Source: an uncultured delta proteobacterium
GTDB lineage: Bacteria > Desulfobacterota > Desulfobaccia > Desulfobaccales > 0-14-0-80-60-11
Reading direction: 5' to 3'
Assembly: GCA_963808395.1 (NCBI GenBank)
Contig: CAWEFJ010000031.1
Coordinates: 190,384 to 254,383 of the forward strand
DNA length: 64,000 bases
Numbering within the stretch: the stretch's first letter is position 1; every line of letters starts with the position of its first letter. Below the pieces are notes generated by a model. It saw only the letters and a list, made by a program, of their open reading frames with translations. It was not told the DNA's origin and did no database searches. The position numbers were made by a program, and so were the translations under genes. This document shows, piece after piece, positions 27,868 through 30,441 of the stretch.

Positions 27868-28187
27868 CAGGAGAATTCAATTTCTTGGAGTTTTTTAGAG
27901 GAATGTTATAGATATTCAATCCATCTTAGCGAAAAACTGAATTTTTTCGATACTATCAAGATATATGGAAATTTGAAGTATTCTATCACTATACCCTGCT
28001 CCTGACTTCATGATTTACGCCTGAATCCAGTTGACATTCTTGCTTGATTGTGAAATTTAAAAAAAAGATCTGGCGAGATGAACTCCCGGCAGTACTCTAT
28101 GGATTGTTGCGCCGGGTATGCGGGATGTTATGTCGCGCAGGGGCTGTCGATGCAAATTTTAACCCCGTGACAAAGGCACTGTGAAAA

Positions 28188-29792
28188 ATGCCACTACAGC
28201 TCTTCGACCTATTGGACAAGGGTTATTTCCCAAAAGAACTTCCGCCTCCATTCACCACTTCCGGCTTTGCACAAGCACTTGCTGGTCCACACGCGCCACC
28301 GATTACCGGTCGGTTTTTAAGTGCTCCGGCTTCTTCAATGATGTGTGTTCATAACCTCGTCAGAACAGGTGGACTCCGCCGAAACTTGGGAATTCCCAAT
28401 CCAAAGCACTTCTATCGCCTTGCGGAGCATGTCGTCGCAAATTGGGGCAACCTCACGGCATGCACCAACTCGTCACCTTTTTCATTGACTAAACCGGTCG
28501 ATGGACGCCCAGATCGCGCAATTTCACCAGAGCATGATTTTGCAGAACGTACAGTAATCCGTGCAAAACTTCGATCGACATGCAGATTTGTGTTAAAGGC
28601 CGATGTTTCACGCTTCTTTCCGTCGATTTACACTCATTCGATCCCCTGGGCCATTATGGGTAAGTCCGCTGCAAAGGCAGCCCACGCTGCCCATACGCTT
28701 AGCCGCATGTGGGAAGACAAAACTGATGTGCTTTCTCGCTCCTTAAACAACAACCAGACTGTCGGAATCCCAATTGGTCCAGACACATCACGCCTTCTTG
28801 CAGAAGTCTTGCTTTCGCCTATCGACGTTGAACTCGCAAACAAGTTTAAGAAACTTCGGGGCTTGCGGTACATTGACGATTACGAATTTGCTTTTGCCAC
28901 GCGCTCCGAGGCGGAGGAAGTTCTGAGTTTTTTACAGCACCTACTAAATGAATTTGAACTCGCACTTAACGCCCACAAGACTACGATTATCGAGTTGCCA
29001 GACGAATTCGATCCTCCTTGGACATCCAAAATACGGGTTTTCGTATTTCGTGATGCAGGCGTTACCGGCCAAAAGAATGATCTCACGGCTTATTTTGATA
29101 TGGTATTTGATAGCTTTAAGCGATTTCCCGAAGAGGGCTTGTTGAAATACGCTATCGCACGCTTGCGGAGCGAAGAGATCCATCGCCAAAACTGGCCGCT
29201 TCTCGAAAATATCCTAATTCACTGTGTCTTAATCGAACCTGCTTGTATTCCCCAGGCATGCGAGCAAATCACGCATTACCGAACGAGGCGTTTTCGAATG
29301 GCAAAGAAGCTGTGGTCGGACTGCCTTAATCGGATCGTGTATGAAAGGGTTCCACTTGGACAATCAAGTGAGGCGGCATGGTCAATGTGGCTCATGAAAC
29401 TGCTCAACATCAAACTGTCGGCAAGAGGTGCCAAAGTCGTCGGCAACTGTGAGGATTCCGTTGTTGGTCTTATGGGACTTGGTCTAGGAGCTTTGGGTTT
29501 GGCAGAAATGGCGCACTTAGCTGGCCTTAGTCGTTTTAGCCCCGCTTCAGGACTCTTTGAGAATCAATGGCTACTTTGCTACCAAGGGAACCTCATGAGC
29601 TGGCTTGGTACAGGTAGTGGTCGTGCTAACTTAGCTATTGATCAGGCCTTTTCTTATCTCGAATCTAAAAATGTATCATTTTTTGACATCGGTGTGCCTC
29701 CGCCGGTCCCCTTAAGGTACCCTCCCCCATATACCGTGGCGGCAGAGGAGGAGGCTACTAACGTTTGTCACCAACTTGCTTTCAGCCCGTAG
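28188..29792 (+). CDS. Stand-alone reverse transcriptase of the Abi/UG (defence-associated) type with helical C-terminal domain
   Basis: 534-aa intact ORF in a low-GC islet.
- RT motifs 1-2: LVRTGGLRRNLGIPNP
- Motif A: LKADVSRFFPSIYTHSIPWA
- Motif B: QTVGIPIGPDTSRLLAEVLL
- Motif C: LRYIDDYEFAF
- Motif D: LALNAHKTTI

The ~240-aa C-terminus shows no catalytic motif I recognise. There are no intron maturase, retron or DGR hallmarks. Confidence 0.65.
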   Translation: MPLQLFDLLDKGYFPKELPPPFTTSGFAQALAGPHAPPITGRFLSAPASSMMCVHNLVRTGGLRRNLGIPNPKHFYRLAEHVVANWGNLTACTNSSPFSLTKPVDGRPDRAISPEHDFAERTVIRAKLRSTCRFVLKADVSRFFPSIYTHSIPWAIMGKSAAKAAHAAHTLSRMWEDKTDVLSRSLNNNQTVGIPIGPDTSRLLAEVLLSPIDVELANKFKKLRGLRYIDDYEFAFATRSEAEEVLSFLQHLLNEFELALNAHKTTIIELPDEFDPPWTSKIRVFVFRDAGVTGQKNDLTAYFDMVFDSFKRFPEEGLLKYAIARLRSEEIHRQNWPLLENILIHCVLIEPACIPQACEQITHYRTRRFRMAKKLWSDCLNRIVYERVPLGQSSEAAWSMWLMKLLNIKLSARGAKVVGNCEDSVVGLMGLGLGALGLAEMAHLAGLSRFSPASGLFENQWLLCYQGNLMSWLGTGSGRANLAIDQAFSYLESKNVSFFDIGVPPPVPLRYPPPYTVAAEEEATNVCHQLAFSP

Positions 29793-30441
29793 GGCGGGAA
29801 AGCGAAGCGAATCCCGCCTTGAGCCTTATTCCATCTCTAGACTTCGAACGTTATCATCTGCCGCCCATTCCAGGTTATAAATGCCGCGTTCCACAAATCG
29901 ATGAAAGCTTGAATGCGGCCAATCCGCGACCCTCGCAACCTGACCGTGCTTTACCGGATTGTAGTGGAGGTAATCTACATGACGCTCATAATCGCCCTCA
30001 TCACGGATGACGTGTTCCCAAAAGCGTCGCTGCCAAATGCCCCGTTCTCCCTTCTGCAAACGCCGGGGTGAAAGTCTTTCCCCTCTGGAAATTTGTGCGG
30101 CAAATCGTGCTTTGATGTCATGCCATCGTGCGGAGAAATCCGCATCCCCGGAAGGCAAAGTCCAGATGCAATGCAGGTGATCGGGCAAAATAACGATGGC
30201 CTCGAGGGTGAATGGCCGGCGTCGGTGGGCCGCCTCGAATACCTCCCGAAGTTTGTCAATGTTTTCGGTCAAGAGTTTCCGGCGGCGTTCCAGCAGCGTG
30301 ACCGTGAAGAAGAACGTGCCGCCCGGAACAAAGGCGCGAATATATTGCGGCATACGTTAGACCTTACCCAATTACCCAAGGCGGGATGCGCTTCGCTTTC
30401 CCGCCCTACGGGTTACGGAGCTTCGCTTTCCCGCCCTACGG
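29789..30441 (-). mobile_element. RAYT-REP unit (REP-associated tyrosine transposase gene flanked by inverted REPs)
   Basis: - Left REP: GTAGGGCGGGAAAGCGAAGCGAATCCCGCC (29789-29818).
- Right REP, inverted: GGCGGGATGCGCTTCGCTTTCCCGCCCTAC (30380-30409).
- A half copy at 30417-30441. Confidence 0.8.
29826..30353 (-). CDS. REP-associated tyrosine transposase (IS200/IS605 Y1 family, RAYT)
   Basis: 175 aa with HUH motif ILPDHLHCIW and catalytic Tyr region YLHYNPVKHG. Confidence 0.85.
   Translation of the reverse strand: MPQYIRAFVPGGTFFFTVTLLERRRKLLTENIDKLREVFEAAHRRRPFTLEAIVILPDHLHCIWTLPSGDADFSARWHDIKARFAAQISRGERLSPRRLQKGERGIWQRRFWEHVIRDEGDYERHVDYLHYNPVKHGQVARVADWPHSSFHRFVERGIYNLEWAADDNVRSLEME

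Follow-up and report, generated by a model that had tools for sequence, protein, structure and literature searches.

Within the window, by which we mean the whole 64,000-nucleotide stretch of uncultured delta proteobacterial DNA that was analysed, the region between 27800 and 30000 has a GC content of 0.41-0.51, against 0.60-0.70 in its flanks. This low-GC islet carries an ORF on the plus strand (28188-29792; 534 aa in the sequence as given) that contains the reverse transcriptase (RT) palm motifs LVRTGGLRRNLGIPNP, LKADVSRFFPSIYTHSIPWA, QTVGIPIGPDTSRLLAEVLL, LRYIDDYEFAF and NAHKTTI, with the catalytic YIDD at residues 228-231; the islet and all of the quoted motifs are present as described in a first-pass annotation of the same DNA. 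Residues 1-290 (28188-29057) form an RT domain with fingers, palm and thumb that is matched by Pfam RVT_1, by the PADLOC Drt6 profile and, in structural comparison, by the DRT6 entry 9wy8. There follow, on the same strand, an all-helical C-terminal domain of the alpha-repeat type (residues ~291-493; 29058-29666) and a C-terminal tail that together with its native stop codon occupies 29667-29761. The gene is preceded by an AT-rich intergenic spacer and a short leader, and beyond its 3' end lie a REP sequence and a gene for a REP-associated tyrosine transposase (RAYT). No conserved partner gene was found among the loci compared, in keeping with the annotation's statement that the RT has no partner ORF.

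The product of the ORF is a UG/Abi reverse transcriptase of class 1 and of the DRT6/UG12 group. It adds a member to a known family of single-gene anti-phage RTs and does not constitute a new system. Among the PADLOC profiles the best match is Drt6 (UG12) PDLC03748 (507 bits, E=1.1e-152), which aligns over the full length of the protein (residues 5-501), followed among the other UG models by UG15 (PDLC03752, 276 bits), UG30 (217 bits) and UG14 (145 bits). The sequence of 9wy8 (MBP-DRT6) was likewise recovered over its full length by phmmer (E=1.2e-60) and by profile search (6e-103), and in BLASTP the validated DRT6 proved 30% identical over 500 aa (E=5e-67). For the fold, an AlphaFold (AF2) model of a 92%-identical homolog was used (pLDDT 94, pTM 0.92); its top Foldseek match was the cryo-EM structure 9wy8, described as 'hexameric DRT6' (TM 0.87/0.92, rmsd 2.4 Å), with UG15/DRT4 (TM 0.79) and AbiK (0.70) next and Abi-P2 also below DRT6. 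The C-terminal domain, for which structure prediction had been proposed as a check, is helical in this model and about 200 aa long, with 13 helices between residues ~291 and 493 at pLDDT >90, and superposes on the corresponding parts of the DRT6, DRT4 and AbiK structures.

The annotation's reading of a stand-alone Abi/UG-type defence RT is borne out by the PADLOC and NCBIfam profiles and by Foldseek, as is its view that the enzyme does not belong to a group II intron, a retron or a DGR. The NCBIfam model group_II_RT_mat reaches only 54 bits (cutoff 300), the scores of the Drt2 (28 bits) and retron RT (32 bits) profiles are negligible, the Drt9 model is absent among the 25 best PADLOC matches, and TM values to group II intron and DGR RTs are at most 0.35. 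No DGR repeats were found inside the RT gene, where the sole direct repeat is a 22-nt pair of 73% identity, which is at chance level. A search of a phage collection returned only partial matches, of the Abi-P2 type.

It might be argued that the RT should be classed as DRT4 (UG15), or as a new UG group, and not as DRT6, given that its identity to the validated DRT6 is just 30%, that the PADLOC legacy 'Drt4' models PDLC02177 and PDLC02179 reach 476 and 453 bits, and that Drt4 is its sole named NCBIfam match. We regard this as very unlikely. The validated DRT6 itself obtains its best scores from these legacy models (725 and 508 bits), and its ranking of PADLOC models is the pattern given by the RT described here, whereas the UG15-specific model scores only about half as high on this RT as the UG12 model, and the NCBIfam Drt4 score of 246.5 bits falls far under the cutoff of 450. 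Moreover, 9wy8 is nearer in both sequence and fold than any DRT4/UG15 entry, and the RT is without the priming Tyr125 of DRT4, a residue absolutely conserved in 174 DRT4 systems that corresponds here to His116. By profile, sequence and fold the protein is UG12/DRT6, and the suggestion of an undescribed branch is not sustained.

The characterised DRT6 (Sphingopyxis sp. PHR10625.1) provides the closest point of comparison, being represented by the best profile match: it shares with the window RT the succession of RT domain, helical C-terminal domain and disordered tail, the single-gene organisation, and homologs associated with defence islands. The two nevertheless differ in that they are only 30% identical, in that the clade of the window RT (members at least 48% identical) has its own tail, PPxPxR...GGGGGY, and in that the window copy lies outside a defence island and shows a probably artefactual 3' frameshift. 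DRT4/UG15 (E. coli; PDB 9vdo, 9l9s, 21ou), a sister group within class 1, has its domains arranged in the same way and likewise polymerises ssDNA with protein priming and without a template; the same ORF55/SbcB logic has been reported for DRT4 and DRT6. The identity of DRT4 to the window RT in the Foldseek structural alignment is, however, 22-23%. AbiK, Abi-P2 and AbiA are class 1 relatives that combine an RT with an alpha-repeat domain and carry out protein-primed, template-independent synthesis, but they are much more distant (TM 0.70, 0.5 and 0.35, respectively; 13-19% identity) and use different priming tyrosines and oligomeric states. DRT2/UG2, DRT9/UG28, DRT3 and the retrons have RT palm motifs and an anti-phage role in common with the window RT, but either are of class 2 or depend on a conserved, structured RNA located beside the gene, and the present locus is without such an RNA.

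This last point bears on the proposal, made in the first-pass annotation, that a non-coding RNA is encoded in the 320-nt gap upstream of the RT gene (27868-28187). Some UG/Abi groups do encode 5' ncRNAs (PMC9226505), and the features that had been noted in the gap exist: it is ORF-free (no ORF above 46 aa), a TTGACA box is found at 28031-28036, and CCCGGC (28085-28090) pairs with GCCGGG (28111-28116) in a 6-bp GC hairpin. Box and hairpin, however, are no more than chance would provide. The folding energy of the gap equals that of shuffled sequence (z=-0.19), an Rfam scan of the gap gave no matches, and in a promoter scan no plus-strand site passed, while the two minus-strand sites compare with 3.1 expected from shuffles; TTGACA-16-TGtGAAATT, read by eye, could count as no more than a weak candidate for an extended -10 element. 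The gap is conserved in none of the 111 related loci searched by blastn, nor was similarity to it found in plasmids, and an alignment of six upstream regions did not yield a conserved RNA. Even in the closest relative, L081, with an RT 93% identical to that of the window and 91.5% nucleotide identity along the gene, homology begins only 18 nt before the ATG, at 28170, and the RBS-proximal leader (28170-28187, plus strand) is the only upstream stretch that the two have in common. In several relatives only 4-20 nt separate the end of the upstream gene from the RT start, and the RT is directly adjoined by its upstream gene in L004, L005, L008 and L010. A conserved RNA was not found downstream of the RT either, where conservation does not extend beyond +24.

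A template or scaffold RNA in the gap, as in DRT2, DRT9 or retrons, is thus extremely improbable, the more so as DRT6 and DRT4 make DNA without a template (PMC12783706) and the RT shows so little affinity to the Drt2, Drt9 and retron profiles. For a protein-primed, template-independent ssDNA polymerase such as DRT6 no template RNA would be expected. The AT-rich (GC 0.39), non-conserved spacer at 27868-28169 presumably carries the promoter and 5' UTR of the RT gene. The case serves as a caution that an ORF-free gap with a TTGACA box and a hairpin beside a class 1 UG/Abi RT does not amount to evidence for a template RNA.

The 3' end of the gene raises a different question. The annotation had described an intact 534-aa ORF, and the ORF is real, but its 3' end is frame-shifted, and the final 18 codons are read in the wrong frame. 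The shift occurs after 29736, at a 1-nt deletion site within a GG-rich repeat (29736-29738), where ACCGTGG stands in place of an expected ACCGGTGG-like sequence. At 29738-29761 the +2 frame encodes the residues GGRGGGY and a TAA stop codon (29759-29761), and restoring one base yields a 524-aa protein ending in GGGRGGGY, the conserved tail of the clade; about 100 of 120 homologs end with a Gly-rich run and then Tyr. Correspondingly, the distance from CCCCCA to TAA is 38 nt in the window and 39 nt in L081. The tail is of low predicted order (pLDDT ~30), its last ~12 residues being predicted as disordered by AF2. As the sequence stands, the frame reads on into a spurious extension (29762-29792, the last part of VAAEEEATNVCHQLAFSP) and ends at a TAG (29790-29792) that does lie inside the GTAG head of a REP (29786-29821), as had been noted. 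The further suggestion that the REP remodelled the native 3' end did not hold up: the native stop codon is still in place, as are the 24 nt that follow it, and the frameshift precedes the REP by 50 nt.

An indel introduced during assembly is the probable cause of this frameshift, given that the reading frames of essential genes elsewhere in the window are broken as well. The ileS gene and a cysS-like gene each run through three frames, the Pfam profile coordinates being consecutive from piece to piece, and a type IIG restriction-modification gene is also split. The ileS and cysS-like genes hold at least four frameshifts, or about one per 1-1.5 kb of coding sequence, so that about one error would be expected in a 1.6-kb gene. 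Alternatively, the locus could hold a DRT6-type gene with a genuine 1-nt frameshift, that is, a tail-less variant with an unrelated 18-aa extension, representing early decay or an altered allele. The shift is, after all, present in the sequence as given; GG-rich repeats are natural slippage sites as well; an islet that stands by itself, was recently acquired and is not part of a defence island would tolerate loss of function; and the 3' part is likewise disrupted in a related metagenomic contig (L085/P0031). Yet the high indel error rate implied by the split essential genes argues against such a variant, as do the dN/dS of 0.17 for the RT gene relative to L081 and the finding that the ORF holds no other lesion, and we consider a genuine frameshift unlikely. 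If it were real, the conserved tail would be lost and function might be impaired; in DRT4, a 38-aa C-terminal deletion abolished immunity (PMC9226505). The assembly indel that we favour has a wider consequence, since errors of this kind in the assembly affect every ORF-based reading of the window.

Taken together, the locus very probably represents a single-gene DRT6 (UG12) anti-phage system composed of an RT and a helical, alpha-repeat-type domain, without an RNA component, and with a 3' indel that is probably an assembly error. The anti-phage activity of UG12 and its dependence on the RT motif have been demonstrated (PMC9226505). The DRT6 of Sphingopyxis needs no template and yields a product covalently joined to the protein; it works through abortive infection, with ORF55 of phage T5 as an activator, and is toxic in an sbcB knockout (PMC12783706). 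The window RT, then, most likely carries out protein-primed, template-independent synthesis and has RT-dependent anti-phage activity, although its chemistry and trigger are extrapolated, as it has just 30% identity to the only biochemically studied DRT6.

The scenario that follows draws on this literature for the hexamer, protein priming, template independence, the trigger and abortive infection. By homology with DRT6 and DRT4, the window RT would assemble as a hexamer and would constitutively synthesise random ssDNA without any template. Synthesis would be primed from a residue of the RT itself, so that the ssDNA product would stay covalently bound to the enzyme. In healthy cells, a host 3'-5' exonuclease of the SbcB/ExoI type would hold this ssDNA at a low level; during infection, a phage ssDNA-binding protein might shield the DNA on the enzyme, and the ssDNA that accumulates would kill or arrest the cell. 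Such a system would need no RNA partner, and the 320-nt gap would supply only signals for transcription and translation. Priming at the equivalent of DRT4 Tyr125 was rejected, because this position is a His nearly invariant within the clade (His116 in the window RT) and is variable across the wider family.

One rather speculative possibility, to which we give only a small chance, is that the conserved disordered tail is an undescribed functional module. It might present a tethered priming tyrosine, able to swing into the active site. The tails of more distant UG12 members are acidic and end like the C-terminal tip of SSB (…DDDIPF or …DDLPF), and the tail might instead mimic the SSB tip, recruiting a host 3'-5' exonuclease (SbcB/ExoI) and so curbing the ssDNA attached to the enzyme; in infected cells, a phage SSB-like protein would then compete the exonuclease away. 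The variable DRT6 tails, some of them SSB-tip-like, could in this way connect to the reported trigger logic of SbcB and an SSB-like protein. Were the tail such a module and the frameshift genuine, the window copy would be a natural tail-less allele. A C-terminal Tyr as the priming residue of the whole family was considered and rejected, as a Tyr is found near the end in only 37 of 76 complete diverse relatives.

The RT gene reached this genome through horizontal transfer, as a bare cassette (28170-29785). Its GC3 is 0.47, in contrast to 0.80-0.87 in host genes, which indicates recent transfer and confirms the earlier impression of foreign DNA. A search of genome contigs showed that homologs are spread over many phyla. 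The neighbours differ in all 11 distinct related loci examined, with no conserved flank, and are mostly defence genes, such as SIR2-pAgo, DISARM DrmMI, Gabija GajB and restriction-modification genes. While homologs usually reside in defence islands, the window copy is flanked by genes for an ABC-transporter binding protein and the RAYT, with no defence island, and stands alone beside the RAYT/REP unit. The locus extends the list of environmental DRT6/UG12 genes by one and shows by example how defence RTs encoded by a single gene travel into housekeeping regions as bare cassettes.

The RAYT/REP unit is an independent neighbour that has left the RT coding sequence unaltered. The RAYT (29826-30353, minus strand) is matched by Pfam Y1_Tnp and by NCBIfam REP_Tyr_transpos (193.5 bits, cutoff 80) and lies between inverted copies of its cognate REP, the arrangement of a REPtron. 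The REP copy on its left (29786-29821, plus strand), with the inverted repeat I1/I2, begins where homology with L081 ends, at 29785, and on its right two tandem REP copies in inverted orientation (30377-30412 and 30420-30444, minus strand) close the unit and mark the right edge of the low-GC islet. Insertion of the unit into an RT cassette was considered and rejected, as the homology with L081 and L084 does not resume beyond it; the element is separate from the RT system, and the closest RT relatives are without it. These three are the only REP copies in the window.

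The 534-aa ORF at 28188..29792 on the + strand contains all of the reverse transcriptase (RT) motifs quoted in the first-pass annotation, which rightly took the protein, in essence, for a UG/Abi defence RT standing alone in a foreign islet. The GC content is 0.41-0.51 over 27800-30000 compared with 0.60-0.70 in the flanks, and GC3 is 0.47 in the RT gene as against 0.80-0.87 in the neighbouring host genes. Pfam detects only a generic RVT_1 domain, and the PADLOC model for Drt6 (= UG12) covers the whole protein (residues 5-501; E=1.1e-152, 507 bits), with the other PADLOC group models, UG15 (the true Drt4), UG30 and UG14, at 276, 217 and 145 bits. 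Among the NCBIfam models, Drt4 yields 246 bits, far under its cutoff of 450 bits, and those for group II introns, retrons, Drt2 and Drt5 yield at most 54 bits. Two legacy PADLOC models named 'Drt4' (PDLC02177 and PDLC02179) score the RT nearly at the Drt6 level, with 476 and 453 bits; the validated DRT6 of Sphingopyxis sp., however, also tops out on these models, at 725 and 508 bits vs 602 for the Drt6 model. Since the validated DRT6 ranks best on the same legacy models, the Drt4 and Drt6 model names overlap and the RT follows the DRT6 pattern. It also follows that PADLOC-style automated naming can mislabel UG12 genes as DRT4, as PDLC02177 and PDLC02179, despite their name, score validated DRT6 above or close to the Drt6 model.

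The closest solved structure by sequence is 9wy8, a cryo-EM structure of DRT6, which is matched over the full length at E=1.2e-60 (6e-103 when a family profile is used); BLASTP against the DRT6 sequence of 9wy8 aligns 500 residues at 30% identity (E=5e-67). The 9wy8 chain is an MBP fusion whose DD motif, at chain positions 621/622, becomes D223/D224 once the 398-residue tag is subtracted, which is the catalytic mutant reported for Sphingopyxis DRT6 (PMC12783706). A structure model was built from a 93-sequence alignment on P0001, a homolog 92% identical to the RT and with an intact C-terminus (pLDDT 94, pTM 0.92); it comprises the RT fold, 13 helices (residues ~295-497) and a disordered tail (517-528, pLDDT ~30). 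Foldseek against the PDB ranks 9wy8, labelled 'hexameric DRT6', highest (TM 0.87/0.92, rmsd 2.4 A), with UG15/DRT4 at TM ~0.79, AbiK at ~0.70, Abi-P2 at ~0.5, and AbiA, group II intron, retron and DGR RTs at 0.36 or below. From this ranking and the helical fold, the C-terminal region that had been left unnamed is identified as the class 1 alpha-repeat-type domain. The RT is thus a further member of the already known DRT6/UG12 family, and the proposal of an undescribed branch finds no support in the profile score or in the sequence and fold match to 9wy8.

UG12 received the name DRT6 once it had been shown to protect against T5 and ZL-19 in a manner dependent on its RT motif (PMC9226505). Like DRT4, DRT6 synthesizes DNA without a template and is itself covalently joined to this product. 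It protects through abortive infection, the T5 DNA-binding protein ORF55 being its activator, and it is toxic to cells in which sbcB has been knocked out (PMC12783706). It is regarded as a single-gene system (PMC13213688) and reported to assemble as a hexamer (10.64898/2026.04.29.721553). By analogy, given the 30% identity and near-identical fold, the RT in the window would most likely also carry out template-independent, protein-attached DNA synthesis leading to abortive infection. DRT4 primes from Tyr125, whereas the aligned residue here is His116 (28533-28535), which is nearly invariant in the clade of the window RT; across 64 diverse family members this position is variable. The only tyrosines invariant among those 64 are Y148 in motif A and Y465 in the helical domain (codon 29580-29582; Y458 in DRT6), and as the only one beside that of motif A, Tyr465 is a candidate priming or structural residue.

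The 320-nt gap upstream of the RT (27868-28187) had been suggested to encode a template RNA. The TTGACA box (28031-28036) and the hairpin (CCCGGC 28085-28090 / GCCGGG 28111-28116) are where they were said to be. The gap (GC 0.39, all ORFs at most 46 aa) shows no detectable similarity to any of 111 related loci and no match to plasmids. Even with L081, the closest locus (RT 93% identical in protein and 91.5% in DNA), nucleotide homology is confined to 28170-29785, which takes in 18 nt ahead of the ATG and 24 nt beyond the native stop, and a six-way alignment of upstream regions is conserved only from about -18. At four loci (L004, L005, L008 and L010) there is no space for an upstream RNA, as only 0-20 nt separate the end of the preceding gene from the RT start. 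Rfam, in E-value mode, had no match over 27000-31000, and the predicted folding of the gap is no stronger than that of dinucleotide-shuffled sequence (z=-0.19; as many as 38 in 100 shuffles fold as well or better). In view of these results, and of a family chemistry that needs no template, a template RNA is not supported. A sigma-70-like promoter scan passed no + strand site and found fewer sites in total than shuffles would predict; the gap is best explained as promoter and 5' UTR sequence, not conserved, that belongs to a transferred cassette.

The 3' end of the gene is altered, and the TAG stop does lie inside the GTAG head of a REP (29786-29821), so that remodelling by the adjacent RAYT/REP unit had been proposed. 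About 100 of 120 homologs have a Gly-rich run followed by a Tyr at the C-terminus or within three residues of it, as in P0001 (…PPPYAGGGGKGGY); the RT as given ends in YTVAAEEEATNVCHQLAFSP. Read in the +2 frame, 29738-29761 is GGC GGC AGA GGA GGA GGC TAC TAA (GGRGGGY, then stop), and insertion of one G after 29736 yields a 524-aa protein ending in PPPYTGGGRGGGY. The window is exactly one base shorter than L081 inside this GG-rich repeat, and homology to L081 runs 24 nt beyond the native TAA, stopping at the REP start. The unit therefore did not remodel the gene: the cause is a 1-nt deletion, and read-through ends at the first stop met, which by chance is in the REP head.

This deletion is probably an assembly artefact, a reading rated well above that of a real tail-less allele. 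In the window ileS (32545-35375) is split over three frames whose profile coordinates follow one another (tRNA-synt_1 2-186, 184-260 and 288-414, then the anticodon domain), as is a cysK-cysS-like gene (22995-25321; tRNA-synt_1e 2-110 and 111-238, then DALR/CysS_C), and a type IIG restriction-modification (RM) gene (6767-9493) is also split, over at least two frames (profile 1-513 and 643-848). Four or more frameshifts within ~5 kb of coding sequence in essential genes correspond to about one assembly indel per 1-1.5 kb, so that about one is expected in the 1.6-kb RT gene. The RT ORF has no second lesion, and its dN/dS relative to L081 is 0.17 (dS 0.24), which likewise argues for an artefact. 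Such frequent indels touch every ORF call in the window. A metagenome locus 79% identical to the RT (L085, contig AR_comb_assmDRAFT_10032998) is also disrupted in its 3' part: the product called there (P0031, 467 aa) has a hydrophobic end that is unrelated, and the tblastn match runs through residue 534, so that here too the frame is shifted, whether genuinely or as an artefact.

Conservation of the Gly-Tyr tail is limited to the clade of the window RT (identity at least 48%), and the tail is sporadic elsewhere. Among 138 diverse representatives, 45 have an aromatic C-terminal residue. Several end like the C-terminal tip of SSB (…DTDIPF, …DDDDLPF, …DDKLPF); acidic disordered tails ending in …D(I/L)PF occur in the distant DRT6-family RTs P0128, P0197, P0204, P0228 and P0250 and at loci L067, L069, L076 and L080, and the papers searched contain no description of such tails. 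As the SSB tip binds SbcB/ExoI (as cited in 10.64898/2026.04.29.721553) and DRT6 is toxic without SbcB, these tails could conceivably have a regulatory role in recruiting an exonuclease, a lead rather than a finding.

Relatives at E<=1e-30 form ~1,100 clusters (50% identity), and homologs occur in Planctomycetota, Verrucomicrobiota, Desulfobacterota, Nitrospirota, Pseudomonadota, Acidobacteriota, Chloroflexota, Bacteroidota, Bacillota and even archaeal MAGs. Full-length plasmid relatives reach just 28-32% identity, and phage records give only partial Abi-P2-type matches. Neighbours of the homologs are mostly defence genes, among them SIR2-APAZ and pAgo (L002), DISARM DrmMI (L005), Gabija GajB (L006), type IIG RM (L008), and Mrr with a type III methyltransferase (L083); L003 has an SMC-like ATPase and a transposase. 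As they differ at each locus, there is no conserved partner. The window RT stands alone between a gene for an ABC-transporter substrate-binding protein (26050-27867) and the RAYT (29826-30353; NCBIfam 193.5 bits). Three copies of the RAYT's own REP lie around it, and its GC3, at 0.57, is likewise unusual for the host.

Apart from the RT, the window shows a single defence gene, the type IIG RM gene (PADLOC PDLC03623); it lies ~20 kb away, in an island of lower GC (0.49-0.55). Further low-GC islands hold a 232-aa ORF that neither Pfam nor PADLOC matches (53000-55000, GC 0.39), and a pentapeptide-repeat protein (46655-47977) with an unannotated 367-aa ORF (46000-49100, GC 0.45-0.47). At 22995-24320 a single continuous frame encodes a PALP (cysteine-synthase-like) domain together with the N-terminal portion of a class I CysRS catalytic domain; this points to a cysK-cysS-type fusion gene, provided that no indel created the joint frame. 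The intergenic regions are full of several distinct families of REP-like palindromic repeats with GTAG heads (for example 17942-18044, 25342-25444, 25630-25664, 31468-32296 and 42410-42549); the REP beside the RT is a separate family, with its three copies at the RAYT flanks only.
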